From a virus (Duplodnaviria; Caudoviricetes): DNA of 41,434 nucleotides. The position numbers and the translations under genes are program-made. The stretch spans positions 1 through 41,434 of the IMG/VR virus record IMGVR_UViG_3300025018_000049. One strand, 5' to 3'. Positions 13,204 through 41,434 of this stretch are shown here, one piece after another. Below the pieces are notes generated by a model. That model was not told the origin of the DNA. It did not search any database and saw only the letters and a list, made by a program, of their open reading frames with translations. Every line of letters starts with the position of its first letter. Within the stretch, counting starts at the first letter, position 1.

Positions 13204-14013
13204 GTGATTAAGTCCGCAGCCATAATTGGAATGGGCGTGTTAGGGTCAAACCTATTTGACTACCTGACCTTCAGATTTGACGAAGTGTGCGGTTATGATA
13301 TAGACGAGAAAAAGAGAGTTGATGAATGGGATAAGATCGAACAATGCGATCTTATTTTTGTTTGTGTCTCTACTCCCTACTCTACCGAGGGCTTTGATCT
13401 ATCCAATGTCGAGGAAGTGATTGATAAGCTTAAAGCTCCAAAGATCATTGTGATCCGCTCAACGGTGATCCCCGGATCAACCGAGTATCTCCAAGCCAAG
13501 TATCCTAGACATAAGATCCTATTCTCACCAGAGTTCTTGCGCGAAAACACTGCCTGGGAGGACATCTTGCACCCTAACACCTCAATAGTTGGCTATACCC
13601 AGTCCAGTAAATGCTTTGCGCCCCTAGTCATGCACATTTTACCCAAAGGTAAAACACAAGGGATGATCCCGGCCACTGATGCGGAGATGATAAAATATGC
13701 CCGCAACACCTACCTGGCCATGAAAGTAGTATTTGCTAACCAGCTTTATGATCTATGCAATATACGTGGTGTAGATTATGCGGTAGTAAGAGATGGCCTG
13801 GGGGCTGATCCCAGGATAGGCAAGTCTCACCTAGACGTTTGGCATGAGGGCGGAAGGGGAGCCGGCGGAGTTTGTTTCCCCAAAGATCTAGCCGCTTTTG
13901 ATGACTATGCTGGAAGTGATGCCGTCTTATTTGGGATGATCCGAAAGATAAACGACATGTATTTGGACATGACCAATAAGACCAGGGGCCGACAATACGA
14001 GGTGAAGAAGTGA
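13204..14013 (+). CDS. UDP-glucose/GDP-mannose 6-dehydrogenase family (lacks the C-terminal UDP-binding domain)
   Basis: IIGMGVLG, CVSTP, RSTVIPG, SPEFLRE, AEMIKYARN, GGVCFPKD. Confidence 0.9.
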   Translation: MIKSAAIIGMGVLGSNLFDYLTFRFDEVCGYDIDEKKRVDEWDKIEQCDLIFVCVSTPYSTEGFDLSNVEEVIDKLKAPKIIVIRSTVIPGSTEYLQAKYPRHKILFSPEFLRENTAWEDILHPNTSIVGYTQSSKCFAPLVMHILPKGKTQGMIPATDAEMIKYARNTYLAMKVVFANQLYDLCNIRGVDYAVVRDGLGADPRIGKSHLDVWHEGGRGAGGVCFPKDLAAFDDYAGSDAVLFGMIRKINDMYLDMTNKTRGRQYEVKK

Positions 14014-15169: not shown

Positions 15170-15334
15170 ATGATAACTTTTTTAGCAGAAATTAAGAGAA
15201 CATCACAAACAAAAAAAGCATCTTTGGATAATGAATTTCAAGTAGTTTTGGTGACCGACAATCCCATGATTTTAGATCTTGGAAAATTGCCTCCGGAAAC
15301 ATTGGTAAAAGTAACAGTGGAGTTAGAAAAATGA
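15170..15334 (+). CDS. Hypothetical protein (54 aa)
   Basis: MITFLAEIKRTSQ...; ATGA overlap with the epimerase. Confidence 0.5.
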   Translation: MITFLAEIKRTSQTKKASLDNEFQVVLVTDNPMILDLGKLPPETLVKVTVELEK

Positions 15335-16218
15335 AAAACAAAAAGAAAGTTTTGGTCACCGGGGCCGCCGGATTTATTGGAAGCAACCTCATCGAGAAGT
15401 TACTTCCCCACTACAATGTTTTTGGGATAGACAACTACTCCTCCGGATGTAACGAGGTAGACTGCGAAGTATACCCGGTCGATATTTTAGATGATAGAGT
15501 AGAAGGAATATTTCATGTCGAGGAGCCAGAGATAGTTATTCACCTGGCAGCAAAGGCGCGGATCCAACCATCTATAATGGATCCCCTATTTTACAATGAA
15601 ACAAATGTCTATGGCACTGCAAGACTGCTAGAACTATCCAGAAAATATGGAGTAAAGAAGTTTATCAATATCTCATCCTCCTCAGTCTACGGAGACAATG
15701 AGACACCCTTCAAAGAATCAATGAGAGCCAAACCCCTCAACCCCTATGCGGCCTCAAAGTATATGGCAGAAGTCTGGGCCAAGATGTATTATAAAACCTA
15801 CGGGCTAGAAACTATCTCCTTAAGACTATTTAATGTCTATGGCAAGAATATGACCGGCGGACAATATCAGCTGGTGATGACCGCATTTAAAGAACAACTA
15901 GAAAAGCACCGGCCATTTAATATCACCGGAGATGGAGAGCAGAAAAGGGACTTCACCCATGTCGATGATATATGCGCCGGGATAATAGCAGTGATGGAGA
16001 AGGAGGGAGATCTGGGAGGCAAAGTATTCAACCTGGGAGCAGGGGACTCAAGATCAGTGAATGAGATAGCGCGACTCATGGCTGGTGGCCCTTACCCCCA
16101 TAAAAGGATTGAGCGAGAAGGGGAGATGCGAGAAACCCTGGCCAGTATCAATAAAGCAAAGTATGTTCTAGGATGGGAACCGAAGATTAAACTAGAGAAG
16201 GGGATCAAGGATGTCTAA
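15331..16218 (+). CDS. NAD-dependent epimerase/dehydratase (UDP-Glc/GlcNAc 4-epimerase-like SDR)
   Basis: TGAAGFIG, HLAA, SSSSVYG, YAASK, RDFTHVDD. Confidence 0.92.
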   Translation: MKNKKKVLVTGAAGFIGSNLIEKLLPHYNVFGIDNYSSGCNEVDCEVYPVDILDDRVEGIFHVEEPEIVIHLAAKARIQPSIMDPLFYNETNVYGTARLLELSRKYGVKKFINISSSSVYGDNETPFKESMRAKPLNPYAASKYMAEVWAKMYYKTYGLETISLRLFNVYGKNMTGGQYQLVMTAFKEQLEKHRPFNITGDGEQKRDFTHVDDICAGIIAVMEKEGDLGGKVFNLGAGDSRSVNEIARLMAGGPYPHKRIEREGEMRETLASINKAKYVLGWEPKIKLEKGIKDV

Positions 16219-23423: not shown

Positions 23424-23828
23424 ATGACAGAGCCAATAATCAAAAAATGTTATCTATGTGGTTCATCTGAAAATGGTTTTTATAAGAATGAAAATCGTTG
23501 TAAGGTTTGTCGCAACAAGATAACTCGTAAATGGCATGAGGAACACCCTGAACGTTCGTATCTCCTACAAAGAGATTCATACGACAAGACTCTCTATGGT
23601 CTTCCAAAAGGTTCAAGAGAACGTATGTTGAAAGAACAGAATGGGGAATGTGCGATTTGCGGACAAGTCCCGACCACTAGGAGAGGTCTAGCGATAGACC
23701 ACGACCACGAAACAGGACAAGTAAGAGGATTATTGTGTCATGGCTGTAACATCGCAATAGGAAACTTCGGAGACGACATCGAGTTAATGCAAAAAGCAAT
23801 CGATTATCTATCCGCTTTCGGGAAATAG
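23424..23828 (+). CDS. Endonuclease VII-like homing endonuclease
   Basis: QNGECAICG...LAIDHDHETGQVRGLLCHGCNIAIG. Confidence 0.9.
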   Translation: MTEPIIKKCYLCGSSENGFYKNENRCKVCRNKITRKWHEEHPERSYLLQRDSYDKTLYGLPKGSRERMLKEQNGECAICGQVPTTRRGLAIDHDHETGQVRGLLCHGCNIAIGNFGDDIELMQKAIDYLSAFGK

Positions 23829-24428: not shown

Positions 24429-24917
24429 ATGAATGGCAAACAAAGCCCGGAGCATATTACAAAAAGACTGGAATCCAGAAGGCGAAACAACCCGAACTAT
24501 ATGCCTTCTGGATATACGGTCTGGAATAAGGGGAAAACAAAAGAAACAGATGAAAGAGTAGCGAAACAGGCCAAGAGCGCAGTAATAGGCAGAAAGTATC
24601 AATCAAATGGTTACGTCTGGGTATATCAACCAGACCATCCCAGCGCAGACAGAAGCGGATATGTAGCAGAACATCGGTTAGTAGCCGAGAAAAAGATTGG
24701 AAGATACCTCTACCAGCATGAAATAGTCCACCATAAAAATGAGATAAAAGACGATAACAGTCAGGATAATGTAGAAGTTATGACACAGAAAGAACATGCA
24801 AAGTTACATGATTGGAGTAAGGGAGGATTTGAAAAGGGCAAAACCCCCTGGAATAAAGGGAAGACAAAGGTTGATTATCCGCAACTAAGTAATAGCGGAA
24901 GAAAGAAAAAGGTGTAA
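24429..24917 (+). CDS. Free-standing HNH endonuclease with NUMOD-type WNKGK repeats
   Basis: GYVAEHRLVAE...VHHKNEIKDDN; VWNKGKTK and PWNKGKTK. Confidence 0.9.
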   Translation: MNGKQSPEHITKRLESRRRNNPNYMPSGYTVWNKGKTKETDERVAKQAKSAVIGRKYQSNGYVWVYQPDHPSADRSGYVAEHRLVAEKKIGRYLYQHEIVHHKNEIKDDNSQDNVEVMTQKEHAKLHDWSKGGFEKGKTPWNKGKTKVDYPQLSNSGRKKKV

Positions 24918-24919
24918 AT

Positions 24920-25984
24920 GTGAAAAAACTAAAACTTCTATTCGTAGATGGGACGGCTGGTTTCTCACCAGATCGGATCAAAAACAAACCAACCGGCGGG
25001 ATCCTAAACTCTCTGACCATCATCCCGCAATACCTGGCCCAATCAGGCCATGAAGTATATGTCTCATGCACCATTGACAAGTTAAAAACTGTGAACGGTG
25101 TAACCTACCTCCCGCTATCTCACCAGGACAAAATCCCGAAGTGGGATATTATCGTATTCAACCGCAACTCTTTAAATGGGAGGATGGTATCTTATTCAAA
25201 AAGCATTGGAGCCAAGACAGTTTGGTGGCTCCATGACATCGTAGACTTTAGATATTTAGAGGATGGCTCCTATAAGCACGTTGACAAAATAATAGCCCTA
25301 TCACAATACTGCAAACGATCCTACTCCGAGTTTTATGATCTACCAGATGAGAAGTTCGTGGTCATACCAAACGGAGTAGACAAAGAGATATTCTACCCAG
25401 GAGACTATAAGAAGCGCAAGAAGTATAAAATGATCATGGCCAGCGCGCCGATCAAAGGATACATGCCTATCGAGTTCACCTGGCAGAATGTCAAAAGACA
25501 ATTCCCGGATGCTGAACTATATATTTACTCAAACCAATCACTACACAACAAAGAAAATTCAACCGCAACCGATCACTTCCTACATGAAATGGAAGATCAG
25601 GGCGCGATGGTGATGCAACCGGTCAAACAAGAGATCCTGGCTGAGATCATGAGAAGCGCCTGGATCCTACTGATGCCGAACTCCTATCCAGAGATCTGCT
25701 CCAACCTACTGCTCCAGGCCCGCGCGTGCGGACTACCAGTAGTGACAACAAATATCGGGGCCAATCCAGAGTTTATAGATGAGAAAACAGGCGTGATCAG
25801 CGGAGACTACCCCCATGACATCTGGTTGTGGGTTAAAAAGTATACTGAGGCGACTGTCAGCCTATGTAAAGACCAAAAACGTCACCAGGGTATATCAGAA
25901 CAAACGACAGAGGGTATCCCCGATTGGAATGAAATAGCAGAAAAATGGTTAATTGAACTGGAGGCATTATGCGACAAAAACTAA
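24920..25984 (+). CDS. Glycosyltransferase, GT4-like (GT-B)
   Basis: WWLHD, VIPNGVD, YPEICSNLLLQARACGLPVVTT. Confidence 0.88.
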   Translation: MKKLKLLFVDGTAGFSPDRIKNKPTGGILNSLTIIPQYLAQSGHEVYVSCTIDKLKTVNGVTYLPLSHQDKIPKWDIIVFNRNSLNGRMVSYSKSIGAKTVWWLHDIVDFRYLEDGSYKHVDKIIALSQYCKRSYSEFYDLPDEKFVVIPNGVDKEIFYPGDYKKRKKYKMIMASAPIKGYMPIEFTWQNVKRQFPDAELYIYSNQSLHNKENSTATDHFLHEMEDQGAMVMQPVKQEILAEIMRSAWILLMPNSYPEICSNLLLQARACGLPVVTTNIGANPEFIDEKTGVISGDYPHDIWLWVKKYTEATVSLCKDQKRHQGISEQTTEGIPDWNEIAEKWLIELEALCDKN

Positions 25985-26634
25985 AGTATATAAAAATGAG
26001 TATCAAACATCCCGGCGTTTCAAACTCCTCAACCTACATGAAGTATCCAAAAGAATTTAACTTTGAAGGCCAGCGGGTTTTAAACCTGGGTTGCGGATGC
26101 ACTACCTACCCGGTCAAAAATGTAGTGAACCTGGACTACCTACCCGGTGAAGGAATAGATCTGGTTTGGGATCTATCAGTTACTCCCCTCCCATTTAAGG
26201 ATGGAGAGTTCGACTTCATCATCGCCAATCACGTTTTGGAGCATGTGCCAAACTGGTGGGAATGTTTTAAGGAACTGGCCCGGATCACTAAAGTAGGTGG
26301 CAACATCCAGGTATTTTTGCCCGGCGATGGTGGATCAAGCCAATTAGGGTATCGAGATCACATCAATATTATCAATTCATATTCCTTCGGAGGGATCAGA
26401 ATGTCTCATCGAAACGAAGCAAACATCTGGGAAATTGAAGATCGGAAACACCTGGGCGCTGTTAAAGATCTGCTCATGACAGCCTATACCCTCACCCCGA
26501 CTAACTACTGGTGGTTACATATACTCCCAGCCCGGATCCAGATGGCGGCCATGAAGCACCTACGAAATGTAGTTCAAGAGCAACAATTTATATTTAAGAA
26601 ACTAGCACCAGAAGGAGTGATCAATGGAAAATGA
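25969..26634 (+). CDS. Class I SAM-dependent methyltransferase
   Basis: VLNLGCG, NLD, LPFKDGEFD, NHVLEHV. Confidence 0.88.
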   Translation: MRQKLKYIKMSIKHPGVSNSSTYMKYPKEFNFEGQRVLNLGCGCTTYPVKNVVNLDYLPGEGIDLVWDLSVTPLPFKDGEFDFIIANHVLEHVPNWWECFKELARITKVGGNIQVFLPGDGGSSQLGYRDHINIINSYSFGGIRMSHRNEANIWEIEDRKHLGAVKDLLMTAYTLTPTNYWWLHILPARIQMAAMKHLRNVVQEQQFIFKKLAPEGVINGK

Positions 26635-26821
26635 ACCGATATTTGAGTTTTATCGCTGTTACAACTGCAAGCGGGCCACTGAACTACAACAACTGCTGAA
26701 AAATCATGGCTGTATATGCGGCAGTAATAAGGTAGTTCCTAGCCGGCTCACTACTTTCCAACTGATCGCCTACCTTGCCTTTCACCCTAGCCTAGTAAGA
26801 AGAATCATAAGGAGAGGCTAG
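26624..26821 (+). CDS. Small zinc-binding protein
   Basis: CYNC...CICGS. Confidence 0.5.
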   Translation: MENEPIFEFYRCYNCKRATELQQLLKNHGCICGSNKVVPSRLTTFQLIAYLAFHPSLVRRIIRRG

Positions 26822-27570
26822 TGGATACAGTAGCGGTTCTCATCCCGATAGCTGAGTCCGTTCCGCCGTTGACTTTCCAAAGCGTTCTATCGGTAGTGGG
26901 GTATGCCTCATCAAAGAAGGTGAAGATCCAGCATATCGGCGTAACTGAACGAACTCTCGTAGATACCGCGCGCAACATCCTAGCCCGGCAGTTCTTAAAA
27001 ACAGACAACGAATGGTCACTATGGTTAGATAGCGACATGATCTTCCCTAAAGATACTCTCACCCAACTTTTGAAAACGGCCAAGAAACATAAGGCCAAGA
27101 TGGTGACCGGAGTCTACTACCAGCGCGGAGGTAAACACTTCCCGGTTCTCTGGGTTCGAGATCCAGAACTAGAGAGCGGATCAAAGGTATTACATGAGAG
27201 TCAGGAGAAGTATAACCAGAATGAATATATCGGCATGTATGCCCTCCCCGGCCCCGCTACTACGAAACCATTTTTGGCTGATACGGCTGGATTCGGGTGT
27301 GTCCTCATCCATCGAAGCGTATTTGAAATAACGGAATACCCCTGGTTCCAATTCCTACCAGGTAAATGTTCAGAAGATTTTTACTTTTTTGTTAATGCGA
27401 GAAACAAAGGATTTGAATTATGGGCCGATCCCTCCCTGGATCTGAAGCACCTGGGAGCGCCGGCCATCATCGGTAAAGAAAACTGTCACGCTTCCCTAGA
27501 GGAGAGCGAGACAATGGTTGAAGAAATAAAAAAAGATAAATTATATGGAAAGGAGAAGGAATGGCACTGA
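26821..27570 (+). CDS. Glycosyltransferase, GT2-like (GT-A)
   Basis: ARNILA, WLDSDM, GFGCVLIHRSVFE, SEDFYF. Confidence 0.85.
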   Translation: MDTVAVLIPIAESVPPLTFQSVLSVVGYASSKKVKIQHIGVTERTLVDTARNILARQFLKTDNEWSLWLDSDMIFPKDTLTQLLKTAKKHKAKMVTGVYYQRGGKHFPVLWVRDPELESGSKVLHESQEKYNQNEYIGMYALPGPATTKPFLADTAGFGCVLIHRSVFEITEYPWFQFLPGKCSEDFYFFVNARNKGFELWADPSLDLKHLGAPAIIGKENCHASLEESETMVEEIKKDKLYGKEKEWH

Positions 27571-27770
27571 AATATGTTACTAAAGACGGCTGGCATTTCC
27601 AGTATCTCCTAGATAATGCCAAACAGTTCTACCGCGCCCTAGTCACCTACCAGGGAGCAACAGCGTCAGCTACGGCAATAGTCGAGGAAACGGTTGGTGA
27701 TCCAATGGTCGGGACTGTTAAGACAATCTTTCCGGGTGGGGACATAACATCCGATGATGCTTTATATTAA
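27561..27770 (+). CDS. Hypothetical protein
   Basis: SD AGGAG; operon position. Confidence 0.55.
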   Translation: MALKYVTKDGWHFQYLLDNAKQFYRALVTYQGATASATAIVEETVGDPMVGTVKTIFPGGDITSDDALY

Positions 27771-27779
27771 GGAGCAACC

Positions 27780-28004
27780 ATGAGATCAATAGATAGAATA
27801 GATGTAGCCTTAAGACTAGACGACACCACTACCAGTAACGTGATATATATCGGCTATGCACCAACTGGGAGCGCCGAAACTGATCCGGTATGGCAGATCC
27901 AAAGGCTATCAACGGCTACCGGACTTTCAATGACTTGGGCTGATGGTAACCCGAACATGGATAATATCTGGGATAACCGGGCTACAACGGTGGTTTATGC
28001 TTAG
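27780..28004 (+). CDS. Small phage protein, possibly structural
   Basis: YIGYA...VWQIQRL...WADG...WDNR pattern; SD AAGGAG. Confidence 0.6.
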   Translation: MRSIDRIDVALRLDDTTTSNVIYIGYAPTGSAETDPVWQIQRLSTATGLSMTWADGNPNMDNIWDNRATTVVYA

Positions 28005-28836
28005 TGTTATAATCCCCTCTAAACATGAGAGGTTTTTAAATAACACCATAGAGGATGTCCTCTCTAATGCTACTGGGGAGATTGAAATATACGCCATGCT
28101 TGATGGGGAAGATGTCGAAGACAAGGTTATCGACCCCAGAGTTCAATACCACGTCTACCCTAAAGGAGAAGGCAACCAGAAACGACACATGATCAACTGG
28201 GTCATGGACAGAACCGACTCAGAATACATGATGGCCCTCGATGCTCACTGTATGTTGGGGCATGGGTTTGACGAGATTTTAATTGAAAATCACCAACCCA
28301 ACTGGGTTCAGATACCCCGAAGATTACGCTTGGACGCTGACAACTGGAGACCCCAGATAGAGACAGTTCGCCCTCCAATAGACTACGAATACCACAAATT
28401 CAGAGACTTCAAAAAAGGTGGTATACATGGTTACAAGTGGGACTCAAGGACACTAGAACGGATCCACATCCCAGTAGATGAAACGATGACATTCCAGGGT
28501 TCCTGCTACTTTATGACACGAGACTGGTTCCGCAAGATAGGTTTGATGCAAATAGAGGGTTTCGGAGGATTCACTCAAGAGGCAGAGGAAATTACTCTAA
28601 AAACCTGGATGGCTGGAGGGAAGGTGATGACCAACAAGAACACTTGGTATGCTCACCTACATAAGGGAAAGAAATACGGACGAATGTATAATTTAAATTG
28701 GGATGAGAAAAAAATAGGAGATGACTACGCCTTTGACTTTTTTGTTCGCAAGAACCCAGAGTTTTTCAAAGAACATATTAAAAGATTTTGGCCGATCCCC
28801 GGATGGCCTGAGAATTGGGAGGACTACCTTGGATAG
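27997..28836 (+). CDS. Glycosyltransferase, polypeptide GalNAc-transferase (GT27)-like, copy A
   Basis: LSVIIP, LDAHC, QGSCYFMTRDWF, EITLKTWMAGG, WYAHLHK. Confidence 0.8.
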   Translation: MLSVIIPSKHERFLNNTIEDVLSNATGEIEIYAMLDGEDVEDKVIDPRVQYHVYPKGEGNQKRHMINWVMDRTDSEYMMALDAHCMLGHGFDEILIENHQPNWVQIPRRLRLDADNWRPQIETVRPPIDYEYHKFRDFKKGGIHGYKWDSRTLERIHIPVDETMTFQGSCYFMTRDWFRKIGLMQIEGFGGFTQEAEEITLKTWMAGGKVMTNKNTWYAHLHKGKKYGRMYNLNWDEKKIGDDYAFDFFVRKNPEFFKEHIKRFWPIPGWPENWEDYLG

Positions 28837-29437
28837 AGAAAAATACATTATAGACAAATATAAATGCGTTGGGGAATCCCCACACGTTATCGAGCTTTGC
28901 AAGTGGAAACAACTTCCTTACCTATTAAAAGACATGGGCTGTAAGGTAGGGGCTGAAATTGGAGTGGAAAAAGGACAGTTCGCAGAAACACTCCTAAGAA
29001 AGATACCCGAACTTAAACTATACGCCGTAGATTGCTGGGAACCATACTCTGAATACCGAGAAGGCAAGAACTACGACATCAATCAATATTACCAGAGAGC
29101 ACTAGAGAAGCTGACTCCTTTCGGGGACAGGGTAGAGATAATTAAGAAATACTCTATGGATGCCCTCGCCGATGTCCCAGACGAATCTTTGGACTTTGTT
29201 TATATAGATGCTAACCATGAGTTCCAGCATGCAGTAAATGACATCGCTGAGTGGAGCAAGAAGGTCAAGAAGGGTGGAGTAATCAGCGGTCACGACTTCG
29301 TTCACACTGAAGTTCAATACGAAAAGATGGAAGTTGAGGATGCTGTGCGGGGATGGACTAGTGCGAAGAAGATAGACCCTTGGTTTATAGCGGTCAGAGG
29401 AGAAAGGATGCCAAATTGGCTCTACATCAAACACTAG
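28829..29437 (+). CDS. Methyltransf_24-like O-methyltransferase
   Basis: GAEIGVEKG, VDCW, DFVYIDANH, GGVISGHDF; SD GGAGG before TTG. Confidence 0.85.
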   Translation: MDREKYIIDKYKCVGESPHVIELCKWKQLPYLLKDMGCKVGAEIGVEKGQFAETLLRKIPELKLYAVDCWEPYSEYREGKNYDINQYYQRALEKLTPFGDRVEIIKKYSMDALADVPDESLDFVYIDANHEFQHAVNDIAEWSKKVKKGGVISGHDFVHTEVQYEKMEVEDAVRGWTSAKKIDPWFIAVRGERMPNWLYIKH

Positions 29438-30345
29438 ACATTATAATCCCCGCCAGAAATGAGATGTTCCTCGCCCGCACGGTTGAGGATATTTTGAAGA
29501 ACAAGCGAGGCTCTACAAAGGTCTTGGTGGGCTTAGATGGTGCGTGGGCCGATCCAGTCATAAAAGATCACCCAGATGTCACCATACTGCACTATACAGA
29601 ATCCATCGGCCAGAGAGCCATCAGCAACCAGCTAGTCAAACTTTCAAAGGCTAAATATGTGATGAAGGTAGATGCCCACTGCTCTTTTGACGAAGGCTTT
29701 GATGTCAAGATGATGGATCGGATGCAGGACGACTACACAATGGTGCCGGTGATGAGGAATCTCTGGGCTTTTGACTGGAAGTGCTACGATTGCGGATTGA
29801 GAACTTATCAGGGGCCTACTCCTGAAAAGTGTTCAAAATGCGGCGGTAGCAACATAAAGAAAAAGATGGTATGGAAGGGCAAAGAAAACCCTCAGTCAAC
29901 ATCCTATTGCTTCGACTCAGAACCCCATTTTCAATATTTCAAAGAATGGACAAAAACCCCTCAGTATCAAGAACAACTCAAGACTGGTCTAACGGAGACA
30001 ATGAGCCTTCAGGGAAGTTGTTTTATGATGACGAGAGATAAATACTGGGAACTGAATATCTGCGATGAGGAGTTCGGCTCTTGGGGGTCGCAAGGGATAG
30101 AGGTAGCAGTCAAGACTTGGCAATCAGGCGGGAAAGTCTTGGTAAACCACAACACTTGGTATGCTCACATGTTCAGAACCCAGGGCGGAGACTTCGGCTT
30201 TCCTTATCCTGGGCCAAACGCTACACCCCCTAAAAGGATGGCCAAAGAGAAGTTTTTAAATAAAGACATTGTTTGGTTATTGGAGAAGTTTTGGCCGGTA
30301 AATGGATGGAGCAAAGAAGATTTAAATAAGTTAAGGAATAGCTAA
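29416..30345 (+). CDS. Glycosyltransferase, GT27-like, copy B, with zinc-ribbon insertion
   Basis: IIIPARNE, VDAHC, QGSCFMMTRDKY, DEEFGSWGSQGIEVAVKTWQSGG, WYAHMFR; CYDC/CSKC insertion. Confidence 0.82.
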   Translation: MALHQTLDIIIPARNEMFLARTVEDILKNKRGSTKVLVGLDGAWADPVIKDHPDVTILHYTESIGQRAISNQLVKLSKAKYVMKVDAHCSFDEGFDVKMMDRMQDDYTMVPVMRNLWAFDWKCYDCGLRTYQGPTPEKCSKCGGSNIKKKMVWKGKENPQSTSYCFDSEPHFQYFKEWTKTPQYQEQLKTGLTETMSLQGSCFMMTRDKYWELNICDEEFGSWGSQGIEVAVKTWQSGGKVLVNHNTWYAHMFRTQGGDFGFPYPGPNATPPKRMAKEKFLNKDIVWLLEKFWPVNGWSKEDLNKLRNS

Positions 30346-30503
30346 TGGCATTTAATCATAACGCCACAACTAAACACTACTCACACACGCCGAAAGCCAA
30401 TCCCAAGGATTTGGTGGAAGTTGAAATTGGTGATGCCAAAGAACCTTTAATAGTCCTCCCTCAAGTTAAGATTTCTCGCAGGGTTTGGCAGGGAGGAATA
30501 TAA
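30345..30503 (+). CDS. Small ORF (52 aa), possibly a truncated remnant
   Basis: TAATG-coupled on both sides; PKDLVEVEIGDAKEP...PQVKISR. Confidence 0.45.
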   Translation: MAFNHNATTKHYSHTPKANPKDLVEVEIGDAKEPLIVLPQVKISRRVWQGGI

Positions 30504-32233
30504 TGGCAGTAATTTTCAATGATACATTTACAGAGGCATCGGATGTAACCCTCGCCTCCCACACACCAGATACGGGAACATCTTGGAGTTTATTGATAAC
30601 CAATAGCTCAGATATAGTGATTGATGCTACAAACGATGATCTAGACGCTACTATATCGAGTGGTGGGCTGGGCGATGGAGCATTATACACTGCCAATGCT
30701 ACCTACCCATCTGCTGACTATGAAGCTCAGGTTGTCGCTACTTCTCCCGATTTTTCCGATGACCCTTGTATTCTTGCAGTAAGGATTCAGGATGCCAATA
30801 ATATGTATGTTGTCAGGTTTAATAATGATTCTTGCCAATTATACAAACGAGTCGCTGGCACTTGGTCAACCGTTGGAACTGCTGGAGCAGGAGTAGCAGA
30901 TGGTTCGACTGTTATATTGAGAATTGTGGGGACTACCCTTTCATTCATAGACGATGGGGCAACTATAAAGAGTGAAACTGTTACTGACCATTCTGCTGCT
31001 GGAAAAGCGGGGGTGGGGATGGGTTCTGTGATTGTCTCTGGGGATGACATGAGCAATCAGGAGATGGACAATTTCTCGGTGAATGATTTGGGGTCTCCCA
31101 GTTCCCCATCAAGCTCAGCTAGTAGTTCTCCTAGCTCCTCACCTTCAACCTCTCCTTCAAGTTCAATTTCTGCTAGTAGTTCAATGTCTAGTAGTGCTTC
31201 TTCAAGTCCATCTAGCAGTATAAGCGCATCATCTTCGATGAGTAGTAGTCCATCTTCAAGCATGAGTTCTTCTCAAAGCTCATCCCCTAGCTCTAGTCCT
31301 TCTAGCAGCATATCCCAAAGCTCGTCTGCTTCTTCTAGTCCATCTAGTTCTCCTAGTAGCAGTATGAGTAGTAGTCAAAGTAGCTCTCCTAGTTCGAGTA
31401 TCTCGGCCAGTAGCAGTGAATCGACATCACCTTCTTCAAGTGAATCAGTAAGCCCTAGCTCTAGTCCTTCATCGTCAGAGAGTTCTTCTGTCTCTGCTAG
31501 TTCCAGTGAGAGTAGCTCAGCTTCGAGTTCACCATCGTCATCTCCTAGTAGCAGTCCATCGAGTTCGGAGAGTTCATCCATATCGGCATCTAGCTCAGAG
31601 TCATCCTCTGCTTCTTCTTCTCCTTCAAGTAGCCCATCGTCTAGCCCAAGTTCTAGTGAGAGTAGTTCTGTCTCTGCCTCAAGTTCCGAGTCAGCATCAG
31701 AATCGGTCTCTCCTAGTTCATCGCCTAGTAGCTCTGAATCTAGTAGTGAGAGTGCATCCATCTCGGCTTCATCTAGTGAGTCATCTAGCACAAGCTCCAG
31801 TCCTTCGAGTTCACCAAGCACTTCACCAAGTAGTTCTGAATCTTCGAGTATATCGGAATCATCCTCACCCAGCTCCTCTCCTTCGAGTTCAACCTCTAGC
31901 AGTGAATCGACCTCACCATCGAGTTCACCTAGTAGTTCCCCAAGTTCTAGTGAAAGCGCCTCAGTTAGTGCGAGTTCGAGTGAATCCAGTTCAGCCTCAG
32001 CATCCGAGAGTGCTTCTCCTAGTTCATCCCCATCTAGTAGTCCTTCAATCTCGCCATCATCCAGCCCCTCTAGCTCAGAATCGAGCAGTGTTTCGGCATC
32101 ATCCTCCCCTTCCTCGTCTCCCAGCACCTCACCTTCCCCGGCAGCAGATTATAAACTGATATACTTTCTTGATAATGGCCAGATTAGGGTCGCCAAATGG
32201 ATCGTTGGTAAAATTTATATAGCAATAACATAA
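30503..32233 (+). CDS. Serine-rich mucin/SRRP-like protein with N-terminal beta-sandwich (lectin/LamG-like) domain
   Basis: SD GGAGG; ~195-aa beta-rich domain, then ~350 aa of S-S-S-X/S-X repeats, then a short hydrophobic/basic C-terminus. Confidence 0.85.
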   Translation: MAVIFNDTFTEASDVTLASHTPDTGTSWSLLITNSSDIVIDATNDDLDATISSGGLGDGALYTANATYPSADYEAQVVATSPDFSDDPCILAVRIQDANNMYVVRFNNDSCQLYKRVAGTWSTVGTAGAGVADGSTVILRIVGTTLSFIDDGATIKSETVTDHSAAGKAGVGMGSVIVSGDDMSNQEMDNFSVNDLGSPSSPSSSASSSPSSSPSTSPSSSISASSSMSSSASSSPSSSISASSSMSSSPSSSMSSSQSSSPSSSPSSSISQSSSASSSPSSSPSSSMSSSQSSSPSSSISASSSESTSPSSSESVSPSSSPSSSESSSVSASSSESSSASSSPSSSPSSSPSSSESSSISASSSESSSASSSPSSSPSSSPSSSESSSVSASSSESASESVSPSSSPSSSESSSESASISASSSESSSTSSSPSSSPSTSPSSSESSSISESSSPSSSPSSSTSSSESTSPSSSPSSSPSSSESASVSASSSESSSASASESASPSSSPSSSPSISPSSSPSSSESSSVSASSSPSSSPSTSPSPAADYKLIYFLDNGQIRVAKWIVGKIYIAIT

Positions 32234-37575: not shown

Positions 37576-40500
37576 ATGGCTAATATATGGCATACACAAT
37601 CAACTAAGAATAACCAGCAAGAATCGGGTTCTAAATGGGCCTCCCCCGGACAATTCGTTGCTCCAGAAGAAACGAAGGCTGTTAATGTTCTCAAAAGAGA
37701 GAAGCAAAAACAAATATTGGCCCAAGTCCATCGAGAAAATGATGCCTATATCGCCAAGGCGGAGGCGGAGAGATCTAAAATTCTTAACAGTCCACTATAT
37801 AAGGTGAGACAGGCGGGAGAAAATGCCCTCAGAGTAGGTGGGGATGTCTTTGATATTCCGGGCAGGGTAGTCAAAACTGGCCGTAATTTGCTATATCCGA
37901 ATGATCCCAAATACTACTATGATGATGATCCGATCCAGCAGATTCTAAACCCTCAAGGCTTAAGTCAGGTAGACATCAAAAGGCAGAACGCGACAATCAG
38001 TTCCGCCAAACCTCAATCTATCATCGATAAGATCAGAAACGCTTGGAACGCTAGTCATAATCAGAGGATAGAACCTAACGAAGTTAATGGTAAACCCAAG
38101 GGGATACTCGACAATATTCCAGAGATGATCACCGATCCGGGTAACTTTATCCCAGCCGGAATAATCAGAGGAGGGGTTAAGATTGTCCGGGGGATTAAGG
38201 CAACAAAAAACCCAGCCATCAGAAGCACCATCAGAAATACTAGACTCAGTGATATTATAGAAAATGCCAGTAAAGACACTCCAGATGCCGTCAGAGCCGT
38301 TGAGGATGTCACCAGGACAGCTGAGAAGCCCGGCAATATCAACGAGGTGATCGACACCGCGCTAGGAAAGAAAAAGACCGCCAAGGATATTGTGAGCGAG
38401 AATGTGGCCCAAGAGGTGAAGGCTGGAGGTGCGGCGAGGAATCCACTGGTGTCTCCAGAAATAAAAGTTGGTGTAGATGGTGTAGATGACTTGCAGGGGA
38501 TACGTAACGCGAATCCTGTGTTATTCAGAGAAGCCACAAAAGCAGGGAGTGCCGAAGAATTTATCCAAAAAATGTCAAAAGGAAAACCCGAAACGGTTGA
38601 TAGCCAGGTTCTCACTGATTTTTATAATAAGGTAAATACTACCCCTTCCCAATCTACGGAGGTTACACAAGTCATGCAACCGATAGATTCGGCCATATTC
38701 AACACCCCCGAAACTGGACAAATGTTTGAGGAACTAGCCAATGCTCAAGCCGGACAGCGCTTCGCGACTCCGGATGGTGTTAATATGGGGATGAAATCAT
38801 CCTTCCCTGACTGGGTTCCTGAAGATCTTCGTTCGAGAAAAATGTTTGATCGTGTCCAGAATATACTACTTGAGGGTAAAGTCCCTACCGGTAAAAACAA
38901 AAAGGAAACGGAATTATTCAACGTAATTAAAGAAGAAATAATGGTTAGGAACCTAAGACCCCTCACTTCAGTGGACAATGATGAGATAATCCAACTACGG
39001 CTAGAGAACAGAATGAAACCAGAAACTTATCTTGATAACAGCCCAGAGCGTAATGCCAAAAGAATACAATGGGCCGATGATCTTTATAATAAGGGTGTCG
39101 AGAACGCTATTAAGAGATCCGGAGCAGTCAAGCAAGAGAAACAAATGTATGTTGTTATTGGGCCTCCTGGGGCTGGTAAATCGTCTGTTTTTGTTAATCC
39201 CATAGTCTCCGAACATGGCGCAATAGTGATCGACTCCGACCTCGTAAAAGAAATGGTCGATGAATTTGGGGGAGGAAAGTTTGCAAGGGCCGTTCATAAA
39301 GAATCAGATGGAGTTGCTGCCTACGCCCTAGAAAACGCCATAAATAAAGGTGATAATATTGTTTACCCGATTGTTGGTAAAAACACCGACAAGGTAGAGG
39401 AGTTAGTAAAATACTTTAATGAACGTGGTTACGATGTCCACCTTAAATTTAATGATCTTCCACCAGAAGAAGCCGCCAAAAGAGTAGTTACAAGGTTTAA
39501 CGAACCAGATGAAAATGGTATCCGTAGATTCGTAGATCCTAACTATGTTTTGAACATTGTGGGGTTGACACCAAAGAGAACTTATGATAAATTAAAGTCA
39601 CTATACAGTGACGATTTGAAAGGAGCAATTAAATCTTATGAAGCCTACTCAAACGATGTCCCCTTCGGAGAAAAACCAAGGTTTCTTGAATCTAGCCCAA
39701 ACACCCCAACTGATAGAGGCATTTTCAAAAACGAACGAAGCGGACAGCCAGGAATACATAGCGGTGGAAGTGCTGAGACAACTATCAGAACGCCGGAAGG
39801 CCAAGCAAAGCCAGAAATAATCGCCCAGGATATAGTTCCTGAATCTCCAACTCCAAAACCAGGTAAACCAGCCCCAGACACTTCCGGGGATATGGGCCTG
39901 AATGATCTCAAAATATCAAATAAAGAAACAAAGGCTCCAATCAAAGGTCGAGTTTCTGATTTTGTCGAAAAAGTAAAAACTGACTACCTAAATAGATTTA
40001 CCCCAATCGAAGATCTAGCTAAGGGTAAAAACCTAAAGCCCTCCGAAAATCCGGCAGTGCTTCTTAAACGATACTCCGGCGGAATGGGAATTGCCAACGA
40101 AAGAATCGACAATGAACTATCTCCAATCCTAAACAAAACGAAGAACCTAGAGGGTTTGCGCCAATTCCTAGTAGCTAAAAGATCTAACGAACTAGCCGAC
40201 AGAGGACTAAGTAAACGTGCTGATAAGGCCCTTCAGGAGTTAAAAGACAGCATGGGGCCAACGGAGTATAAGAACTTCGAGAATATCGCCGATGAACTCT
40301 ACGCTTACCAGAAGAAAAACCTCCAACAACTGCTAGATGTGGGCGTATTATCCCAAAAACAATTTAATGACATCACTAGCAAGAACCAAAAATATATTCC
40401 ATTTAATAGGGTGATGGATAATCTTGAGGGGGCCGGATACTTCACAAGTAACAAAAACATCAATGTTAAATCATCTGGGATCAAGGCGATCAAAGGATCA

Positions 40501-41434
40501 GACCGAGACATTGTTGATCCCCTAGAATCAGTGGTAGGCAATACCTACGAAATCACCAAGACAGTTGAAAAACAAAGAGTGTTGAGTGCTATGGTGGGAC
40601 TGGGAGAATTTAAGAAACTCAAAACACCAATGGCCCTTATAAACGTAGATGACGAAGTGGTGGGCGCGATAAAAACAGGATACGAACCAAAACAACCCCA
40701 CATCACCCTATTCCAAGACGGTAAGAAGGTTTATTACGAAACCTCAAAAGAAGTAGCGGATATAATCGGTGGGATGAACGAAGAAAACCTCAACGTGGCT
40801 GTTCGGATCATGTCAGTTCCGGCCAGAATAATGAGAGCGGGAGCCACTGGACTAAACGTAGGCTTCGCCGTTCCTAACATCGTTCGTGACCAATTATCTG
40901 CCGCCGTAAACTCTAAATATGGAGGAATCCCAATATACGACTTTATATCTGGGCTATCTTCGGTTATCAAAAAAGATAAAATGTTCCAAAGTTGGGTCAA
41001 ATCTGGGGCTGATCAGGCTAGTTTCTTTTCCCAAGACAGAACCACCCTCCAGAAGGGCTTAAAAGACATCACTGGAGGACTAGGACACAAGGCCGGAAAG
41101 TTTGTCAAAAACCCACTAGAGATGTTTAGAATCATGGGGGAATTTTCCGAGAAGGGATCTAGGGTTGGTGTATACAAGCGGGCCATGAAGGGAGCCAGTA
41201 AGGAAGGTCTAACTGGTTTTGATCAGGAACTAGCCGCGATGGAGCAAGCCAGAGAAGCCACTATCGACTTTGCTAGGCGCGGATCTAAAATGAAAGCCAT
41301 GAACTCAATAATCCCCTTCTTAAACGCCAGGATGCAGGGATCACTGAAACTTATAGACTCTGCCAGAAAAAGACCAGTTCAAACTCTCGCCATTGGTGGG
41401 GCCATCGCTGGAGCGCCGGCACTTGCCCTCTATG
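37576..41434 (+). CDS. Large polyvalent (ejected) protein with zeta-toxin-like P-loop kinase and LPD38 domains; continues to 993 (~1574 aa)
   Basis: Frame 1 is open from ATG 37576 to the window end (no stop, so absent from the ORF track); GPPGAGKS...IDSD..KE...VHKES at ~39160-39310; NIVRDQ, TIDFARRG, IPFLNA. Confidence 0.85.
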   Translation, partial: MANIWHTQSTKNNQQESGSKWASPGQFVAPEETKAVNVLKREKQKQILAQVHRENDAYIAKAEAERSKILNSPLYKVRQAGENALRVGGDVFDIPGRVVKTGRNLLYPNDPKYYYDDDPIQQILNPQGLSQVDIKRQNATISSAKPQSIIDKIRNAWNASHNQRIEPNEVNGKPKGILDNIPEMITDPGNFIPAGIIRGGVKIVRGIKATKNPAIRSTIRNTRLSDIIENASKDTPDAVRAVEDVTRTAEKPGNINEVIDTALGKKKTAKDIVSENVAQEVKAGGAARNPLVSPEIKVGVDGVDDLQGIRNANPVLFREATKAGSAEEFIQKMSKGKPETVDSQVLTDFYNKVNTTPSQSTEVTQVMQPIDSAIFNTPETGQMFEELANAQAGQRFATPDGVNMGMKSSFPDWVPEDLRSRKMFDRVQNILLEGKVPTGKNKKETELFNVIKEEIMVRNLRPLTSVDNDEIIQLRLENRMKPETYLDNSPERNAKRIQWADDLYNKGVENAIKRSGAVKQEKQMYVVIGPPGAGKSSVFVNPIVSEHGAIVIDSDLVKEMVDEFGGGKFARAVHKESDGVAAYALENAINKGDNIVYPIVGKNTDKVEELVKYFNERGYDVHLKFNDLPPEEAAKRVVTRFNEPDENGIRRFVDPNYVLNIVGLTPKRTYDKLKSLYSDDLKGAIKSYEAYSNDVPFGEKPRFLESSPNTPTDRGIFKNERSGQPGIHSGGSAETTIRTPEGQAKPEIIAQDIVPESPTPKPGKPAPDTSGDMGLNDLKISNKETKAPIKGRVSDFVEKVKTDYLNRFTPIEDLAKGKNLKPSENPAVLLKRYSGGMGIANERIDNELSPILNKTKNLEGLRQFLVAKRSNELADRGLSKRADKALQELKDSMGPTEYKNFENIADELYAYQKKNLQQLLDVGVLSQKQFNDITSKNQKYIPFNRVMDNLEGAGYFTSNKNINVKSSGIKAIKGSDRDIVDPLESVVGNTYEITKTVEKQRVLSAMVGLGEFKKLKTPMALINVDDEVVGAIKTGYEPKQPHITLFQDGKKVYYETSKEVADIIGGMNEENLNVAVRIMSVPARIMRAGATGLNVGFAVPNIVRDQLSAAVNSKYGGIPIYDFISGLSSVIKKDKMFQSWVKSGADQASFFSQDRTTLQKGLKDITGGLGHKAGKFVKNPLEMFRIMGEFSEKGSRVGVYKRAMKGASKEGLTGFDQELAAMEQAREATIDFARRGSKMKAMNSIIPFLNARMQGSLKLIDSARKRPVQTLAIGGAIAGAPALALY
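41308..41434. repeat. Terminal direct repeat, copy 2
   Basis: Identical to 1-127. Confidence 0.95.

Follow-up and report, generated by a model that had tools for sequence, protein, structure and literature searches.

The window analysed here is a whole virus record of 41,434 bases (IMGVR_UViG_3300025018_000049) from an uncultured groundwater phage, which has direct terminal repeats and a completeness rating of 100%. The phage is podovirus-like, given its SU10/P22-type portal, its major head protein and its SU10 adaptor. Gene calls and coordinates place a GT4 and a GT2 glycosyltransferase (GT), two methyltransferases, two paralogous GT-A enzymes (copies A and B) and a serine-rich gene between the capsid and tail genes, which is the order given in a preliminary description made from the sequence alone (Table 1). 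This text concerns the last part of the row, in which copy A, a Methyltransf_24 enzyme, copy B and the serine-rich gene form a candidate cassette for protein O-glycosylation.

The serine-rich protein and its (X-Ser)n tract

The serine-rich protein was first described as Ser/Pro-rich and about 350 residues long. It comprises 576 residues, and 349 is the length of its tract only. The tract is indeed rich in Ser (242 residues), and beyond this it alternates strictly, with Ser filling 99.4% of one X-Ser phase. All six Ser codons are used in scrambled order, and Tandem Repeats Finder (TRF) detected no tandem DNA array in the tract beyond one 36-nt patch. The regular phase, encoded by six codons and without a DNA array, points to selection on the protein pattern. 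The same holds more widely, as Ser occupies 99.6% of the phase across 173 tracts whose DNA is scrambled. Contigs of the aquifer metagenome run X1, a possible source, tile the region, the long ones among them showing no differences, and short pieces from two groundwater runs of other studies cover it partially, including parts of the tract. An assembly artefact or a tandem DNA repeat as the origin of the tract was rejected on the basis of TRF, codon use and contig tiling.

The head of the protein (residues 1–197) matches phrog_2804, a virion structural protein (E 8e-7). Its predicted structure (predicted local distance difference test score, pLDDT, 95) is a ConA-like sandwich, with CBM66, the Douge central fibre (TM 0.72) and many phage minor tail proteins as nearest neighbours. 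This match and this fold make a location in the virion likely, as the preliminary description had proposed. No signal peptide, LPxTG anchor, secA2/secY2/asp or GtfA/GtfB was found in the structural module of the window, and the termini of related carriers, judged by eye and by hydropathy, nearly all lack a signal or membrane segment. Promoter and terminator scans of the region stayed at chance level, and no RNA dataset occurs among the runs listed as containing it.

Table 1. Positions of the cassette and of other features named in the text (window coordinates).
Feature	Position	Strand	Remark
NDP-sugar 6-dehydrogenase-like gene	13204..14013	+	outside the cassette; possible donor supply
NDP-sugar 4-epimerase-like gene (GalE/WbgU/WbpP-like)	15331..16218	+	outside the cassette; possible donor supply
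Major head gene	22182		
Separate glyco-module	24920..27570	+	GT4, Methyltransf_11, 65-residue open reading frame (ORF) and GT2; unlinked to the Ser tract
GT4 gene	24920	+	
Methyltransf_11 gene	25969	+	first methyltransferase
GT2 gene	26821	+	
GT-A copy A	27997..28836	+	279 residues; GT27/GT60-clade enzyme
S-adenosylmethionine methyltransferase	28829..29437	+	Methyltransf_24 (E 1e-17); core cassette member; predicted glycan O-methyltransferase
GT-A copy B	29416..30345	+	309 residues; GT27/GT60-clade enzyme; predicted peptide-priming enzyme
ORF between copy B and the Ser gene	30345..30503	+	52 residues; weak relative in 1/77 viral loci
Ser-rich gene	30503-32233	+	576 residues
Ser protein, N-terminal domain	30503..31093	+	residues 1-197; predicted ConA/CBM66-like beta-sandwich
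Ser protein, (X-Ser)n tract	31094..32140	+	residues 198-546, 349 residues; predicted O-glycan acceptor stalk
Ser protein, C-terminal segment	32141..32233	+	30 residues; may be a virion anchor
SU10 adaptor gene	32246		

Fold and active sites of the two GT-A enzymes

When copy B was searched as a single sequence against the PDB with phmmer, the top 16 matches were all polypeptide N-acetylgalactosamine (GalNAc)-transferases (ppGalNAc-Ts, family GT27; best E 2e-7); the corresponding search with copy A was weak (E 0.15). Profiles of the two families each matched ppGalNAc-Ts best, at E 2e-13 for copy B (93 sequences) and at E 3e-14 over positions 5–255 for copy A (71 sequences). GT2 structures match these profiles over the first ~100 positions only, and the C-terminal half matches GT27 alone. 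Structures were compared for copy B, whose predicted model has a mean pLDDT of 93. With Foldseek, every match listed down to rank 49 was a GalNAc-T (TM 0.58–0.69). With VIA, the model aligned to GalNAc-T1 at Z 25.7 (root-mean-square deviation 2.6, 264 aligned residues) and to Toxoplasma T3 at Z 24.2, and the best GT2 structure, chondroitin polymerase, reached Z 17.9, about 8 Z units lower. The GT-A catalytic domain is nearer to GT27 than to other solved GT-A families. The early preference for GT27 over generic GT2 is thus borne out, by profiles for both copies and by structure for copy B.

GT60-type clusters (PF11397) are the next neighbours in the Atlas (Atlas score 0.93). PF11397 matched 25/93 copy-B members and 2/71 copy-A members weakly (best E 0.0068), and no GT60 structure surfaced in the structure searches of copy B. 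Copy B is soluble and bears a Cys4 zinc-ribbon-like insert. Pfam identified no ricin-type lectin domain in either protein, both of which stop at the end of the catalytic domain. The enzymes thus appear to behave as members of a GT27/GT60 clade that miss two GT27 features, the full motif described below and the ricin domain. In a quick, unrooted tree of 146 copy-B proteins, viral and genome rows are interleaved, with 64 open forks; the tree holds no eukaryotic GT27 or GT60 sequences, and no direction of transfer is claimed. Among 50,697 GenBank phage records copy B had zero matches, and for a copy-A relative two weak N-terminal matches were the only ones among GenBank phages.

Both paralogues carry DAHC, as described before, with codons starting at 28240 and 29671, and the copy-B peptide quoted in that description is present in the translation. 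Eight copy-B residues (D86, H88, G200, W223, G224, H251, F253 and R254) are invariant in 93/93 family members and correspond, in the phmmer alignment, to D224, H226, G308, W331, G332, H359, F361 and R362 of GalNAc-T2. In that enzyme D224, H226 and H359 bind metal, W331 acts in catalysis and Pro-x-Pro acceptors are recognised through F361 (PMC13071866, PMC4432651; here and below, PMC numbers refer to excerpts of the sources), and mutation of F361 nearly abolishes activity on peptides (PMC4432651). The metal triad, Asp-x-His with a distal His, is kept in 93/93 members of the copy-B family and 71/71 of the copy-A family. The intact W-G-G-E-N-x-E motif is not present in the copy-B family, which reads W-G-x-Q-G-x-E. 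The copy-A family has no equivalents of W331/G332 and F361 and keeps an acid, Glu or Asp, at position 334 (71/71) together with E337. By its residues, the active site of copy A is the mirror image of that of copy B, from which we infer a division of labour with copy B priming the peptide.

The two copies are 28% identical. They have an 18-mer in common, at 28639 and 30151, which the preliminary description had singled out. It is present and encodes the conserved NTWYAH motif, and it is not special, as at least 18 nt are common to 10/143 paralogue pairs (the window pair included), mostly at this motif. Recent duplication or conversion as its origin was rejected, given the conserved motif and the low identity of the paralogues.

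Linkage of the enzymes to serine tracts in viral loci

The viral set comprises 77 loci with a copy-B relative, 61 of which hold two or three GT paralogues. An (X-Ser)n tract of at least 40 residues occurs in 66/77 loci and in all 46 that extend at least 5 kb downstream; the 11 loci lacking a tract all have a downstream flank below 5 kb. After dereplication a tract is present in 39/39 loci at the 90% level and in 22/22 at the 70% level. In 36/53 loci the distance from copy B to the start of a Ser-tract gene is no more than 500 nt. A strict DNA pattern matches 31/77 loci, compared with an estimated ~980 stretches in 2.9 million contigs. By homology the 115 tract carriers divide into 56 groups; they include several virion proteins (phrog_3287, 26502, 10356, Prophage_tail), some conserved ones occur both with and without a tract, and the carrier phages differ in capsid type. 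Carrier sequences of such diversity show that the linkage is not due to one clone. A capsid control comprised seven loci, mostly short.

For the reverse direction, 25 Ser-type and 25 Thr-type long-tract records were chosen from 132 pattern loci, excluding records of the forward set, repeat entries for a contig, loci with short tracts and a small surplus of Thr-type loci, and 24 of each were assessed. The enzyme family was found in 14/24 Ser-type records vs 0/24 Thr-type records (p 8e-6), with weak N-terminal matches only in five of the latter. Eight of the 10 Ser-type misses are fragments. The co-occurrence of the enzyme with Ser-rich genes across phages, suggested in the preliminary description, is therefore seen from both sides.

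If the enzymes were instead generic GT2s acting on DNA, lipid or polysaccharide, with the tract an unmodified flexible linker hitchhiking in the module, the Pfam assignment of both to Glycos_transf_2 would be expected, and DNA or the serotype of the host is a frequent target of phage GTs (PMC12619734). This is very improbable, since the best GT2 structure lies ~8 Z units behind GT27, the genes sit among virion genes, as in phage virion glycosylation, and not among replication genes, the linkage to tracts spans 56 unrelated carrier groups and bacterial chromosomes, and Ser holds its phase over 173 tracts despite the scrambled DNA.

It is somewhat less improbable, though still quite doubtful, that another enzyme, a host or phage GT, primes the tract and that the GT27-like pair extends glycans or modifies other surfaces such as host cell-surface glycoproteins. 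The 100% complete phage G028 and the 96% complete provirus G023 have tracts and no family member, the commonest partner family (c3, 116 loci) is absent from the window, and copy A lacks peptide-contact residues. Copy B, however, retains the Phe that GalNAc-T2 needs on peptides (PMC4432651), DxH is limited to GT27 and GT60, the two polypeptide-priming families (PMC7185993), and the Ser-tract gene lies close to copy B in most of the loci in which the distance was taken.

Further observations concern these partners and tracts. In G028 (L346, 6472-11726) two (X-Ser)n proteins occur without a GT27-like gene, and directly upstream of the Ser genes the sequence reads as nucleotidyltransferase/APS-kinase-like and sulfotransferase-like genes. 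Cluster c3 (L234:4491-5138), the commonest cassette partner and often multicopy, has no Pfam or PHROG match and bears the automatic Atlas name glycosyltransferase. Long Thr-type (T-P-x-V/I) tracts occur without the enzyme family in large viral contigs (L088, L099, L128, L143, L163 and others), which may have a glycosylation system of their own.

The limits of the cassette emerge from its relatives. The Methyltransf_24 enzyme has relatives in 56/77 viral loci and 62/80 genome loci, whereas relatives of the GT4, the first methyltransferase and the GT2 occur in 1, 1 and 2 of the 77 viral loci. A scan for GT4 relatives found none, and the corresponding GT2 scan found five loci, with the cassette only in the one already known. 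The sister phage L310 keeps the portal, capsid, GT4 (72%), methyltransferase (61%), GT2 (71%) and adaptor in order, and has a beta-helix protein in the place taken in the window by the GT27-like pair, the Methyltransf_24 enzyme and the Ser gene; no family member occurs elsewhere in the L310 record, which is 73% complete. From this contrast and these frequencies it follows that, at the level of gene content, the core cassette is copy A, Methyltransf_24, copy B and the Ser gene. The GT4, the GT2 and the first methyltransferase were accordingly rejected as parts of the conserved system, and the proposal that they extend the same glycan is, on the same grounds, not supported, as L310 keeps them without a tract.

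This bears on the full version of the preliminary proposal, in which the pair are true ppGalNAc-transferases adding alpha-GalNAc from UDP-GalNAc, and a single glycan on the Ser protein is the joint product of all GTs and methyltransferases nearby. In its favour, no solved family is nearer than GT27, copy A has an acid at Glu334 throughout, and the 4-epimerase-like gene of the genome has WbgU and WbpP among its matches. The top matches of that gene, however, are UDP-glucose 4-epimerases, copy B has Gln at 334, neither enzyme has a ricin domain, the Atlas places GT60-type clusters next to the family, 25/93 members match PF11397 weakly, and the GT4, GT2 and first methyltransferase are unlinked to the cassette. 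We regard this full proposal as unlikely. Epimerase relatives are present in 11/77 viral loci and 6-dehydrogenase relatives in 22/77; in other loci relatives of both genes sit within the cassette, and here they lie far upstream.

Other features of the window and of its relatives stand apart from the cassette. A giant predicted internal or polyvalent virion protein (37576-41434, continuing at 1-993), apparently split by the record end, contains a Zeta_toxin-type kinase domain (E 2e-14, residues 520-661) and LPD38. Endonuclease VII and HNH genes lie inside the head module (23424-23828 and 24429-24917); the sister phages L001 and L310 have none at these positions. The major capsid gene is interrupted in two relatives (L082, 10001-12300; L310, 5852-7191), and the interruption in L082 is a group I intron (RF00028) that carries homing-endonuclease-like ORFs.

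Chromosomal relatives, proposed mechanism and known systems

The system was first described as phage-encoded. It does occur in phages, and it is not confined to them, being chromosomal in some Patescibacteria. A species-genome collection contained 135 relatives; among the 80 kept, most titles are those of Patescibacteria lineages. In the tree, 26 rows labelled Gammaproteobacteria interleave with Patescibacteria rows, and we infer that many of these labels are wrong. Tracts are present in 47/80 genome loci and in 30 of the 36 with at least 5 kb downstream. In five genomes that were read further, the cassette lies among housekeeping genes and is followed by tatA and tatC, genes of twin-arginine translocation (Tat). 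Because the flanking genes read as housekeeping genes, the chromosomal copies are probably not prophage remnants; a search with the SU10 portal gave no match in five genomes with a chromosomal cassette, and a control query also matched nowhere.

A tatC gene flanks 15/80 genome loci. In an even sample of 400 Patescibacteria genomes, the enzyme occurs in six (five full-length, one on a phage contig) and TatC in 24. TatC is present in two of the five genomes with a full-length enzyme, and in both a Ser tract adjoins it (p 0.03); 22 TatC genomes lack the cassette; G001-G005, chosen for tatC beside the cassette, were left out of this count. TatAC has been noted in three classes of the Candidate Phyla Radiation (CPR) (PMC9166423). 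By gene order, the Tat link is real synteny in a subset of genomes; export of the Ser proteins by Tat is a conjecture. Near tatC, an ORF of 77-83 residues with a twin-arginine-like N-terminus is seen in L268 (729-959), L278 (3846-4076), L287 (5295-5528) and L337, and similar small ORFs flank tatC in cassette-less genomes. The giant chromosomal (X-Ser)n proteins of L248, L254, L265, L266, L274 and L280 have a common 40-residue C-terminal motif, which recurs in a small downstream ORF, and a similar ending is found in the phage carriers L001 and L012. Seven bacterial loci (L221, L224, L230, L232, L237, L241 and L267) have a tandem row of three tail-fibre-like genes, with phrog_8469 at the N-terminus, that separates the enzyme from the Ser giant; their flanks contain no further phage genes.

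The host group is best indicated by L295, an SU10-type prophage with cassette and integrase, flanked on both sides by housekeeping genes in a Saccharibacteria-labelled 568-kb contig. On this genomic evidence the host of the phage is probably a Patescibacteria cell. Portal homologues yielded no host name. Patescibacteria phages are reported to carry ConA-like lectins and galE, interpreted in that study as host O-antigen genes (PMC12911398).

Taken together, the gene-level evidence favours, with a probability of roughly three in four, the reading that the tract is O-glycosylated at the protein level by the cassette enzymes, so that the phage sugar-coats a predicted fibre of its particle. In this mechanism the serines would be modified in the cytoplasm of the infected cell, so that the particle bears a stiff sugar stalk, which is likely methylated. 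Copy B, in which the metal triad, W331, G332 and the Pro-pocket residues F361/R362 are retained, would place the first sugar on Ser; by clade precedent this sugar would be an alpha-linked N-acetylhexosamine (HexNAc), whether GalNAc, N-acetylglucosamine (GlcNAc) or other. Copy A, which keeps the donor-binding acid and has lost the peptide-contact residues, would act on the primed tract or on another acceptor, likely as a partner or second-step enzyme, and the Methyltransf_24 enzyme would O-methylate the glycan. With Ser at every second residue, the coated tract would be an extended stalk, with the ConA-like head held out from the virion for attachment to the host or for shielding. The joint absence of enzymes and tract from L310 counts for this reading.

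Several observations weigh on the other side. Identity to GT27 is just 14-18%, and Pfam sees only a generic Glycos_transf_2 in both enzymes. At the donor contact Glu334, copy B has Gln in 87/93 members, with Gly at Asn335 and, by offset, no counterpart of Arg208. The strict DNA pattern was devised after the tracts had been seen, G028 and G023 combine near or full completeness with Ser tracts and no family member, and 6/36 long-flank genome loci show no tract within the flank examined. In G028 the sequence nearby reads as other, predicted sugar enzymes. As to the host, the capsid protein of the phage has a match in just 1/401 Patescibacteria genomes, at 26%.

The cassette is real and coherent, as far as genes can tell, and apparently undescribed in print; it would be a variant that joins three known kinds of system. 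No published account of the enzyme/Ser-tract pairing was found in a search that left most subscription journals and supplements (including CPR phage gene tables) outside, and the excerpts of PMC13738210, PMC12960796 and PMC3417536 contain nothing on it. New here are the comparison with a sister phage, by which two glyco-modules can be told apart, the mirror-image relation of the active sites, and the counter-examples.

Initiation of the mucin type has been described in animals and apicomplexans (GT27) and in protists (GT60). The phage enzymes resemble GT27 (GalNAc-T1 8v9q/1xhb, GalNAc-T2 4d0t, Toxoplasma T3 8uhv) in fold (Z 25.7), in DxH with a C-terminal His, in the G308/W331/G332/F361/R362 positions of copy B, and in an adjoining Ser/Pro-rich candidate acceptor. 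They differ in being ~300-residue soluble proteins with a zinc-ribbon-like insert, without a membrane anchor or a ricin lectin domain, in the Gln of copy B, and in their phage or Patescibacteria setting as opposed to the Golgi. With GT60 (Dictyostelium, Trypanosoma cruzi; the Skp1 GlcNAc-transferase), which transfers GlcNAc (PMC8724618), they have in common DxH, the lack of a lectin domain, soluble cytosolic members and an occurrence in prokaryotes and protists (PMC8724618, PMC7185993), besides Atlas proximity; the difference is that PF11397 matches weakly only (best E 0.007).

The serine-rich repeat proteins (SRRPs) of streptococci and staphylococci show an alternating Ser-X pattern. They likewise set a globular binding head on a Ser-repeat stalk and are encoded within a glycosylation island; GtfA/B add the priming GlcNAc, and glycosylation takes place in the cytoplasm (PMC7661464). 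Here, in contrast, the priming enzyme would be GT-A and GT27-like, there is no signal peptide, LPxTG or SecA2/SecY2, and the carriers are predicted phage particle proteins or giant Patescibacteria proteins sometimes beside tatAC. Mycobacteriophages of clusters O and F1 also combine GTs with an O-methyltransferase, which modify capsid and tail-tube proteins (PMC11600133, PMC12619734, PMC10877033, PMC12582341, citing Freeman et al. 2023). In those phages the sugars are attached to the C-terminal ends of the capsid and tail-tube subunits, and long Ser tracts are not involved (PMC11600133, PMC12619734). In the present case a stalk would be coated along its length. To our knowledge, demonstrated phage virion glycosylation consists of such C-terminal glycans in mycobacteriophages.

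A wider proposal, which we hold tentatively and consider rather less probable than its opposite, is that a lectin-less prokaryotic GT27/GT60 branch starts mucin-type (alpha-HexNAc-Ser) glycosylation in the Patescibacteria cytoplasm. The enzyme pair, the methyltransferase and the (X-Ser)n tag would then be a mobile kit, which phages graft onto unrelated virion proteins and cells onto giant fibres exported by the linked TatAC. Alongside the SRRP/accessory-Sec system it would stand as a second such arrangement, built independently, and its enzymes would be candidates for a sister lineage of the animal GalNAc-Ts.

If the glycosylation reading is true, mucin-like stalks are made in groundwater phages and some Patescibacteria by means of a soluble GalNAc-T relative of 300 residues. 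Such enzymes would permit a direct test of the origin of GT27/GT60, and as small cytoplasmic proteins with a matched acceptor tag they would be of use in glycoengineering. The coated stalk would also be a candidate for a surface structure of the Patescibacteria, which depend on attachment, and of their phages.

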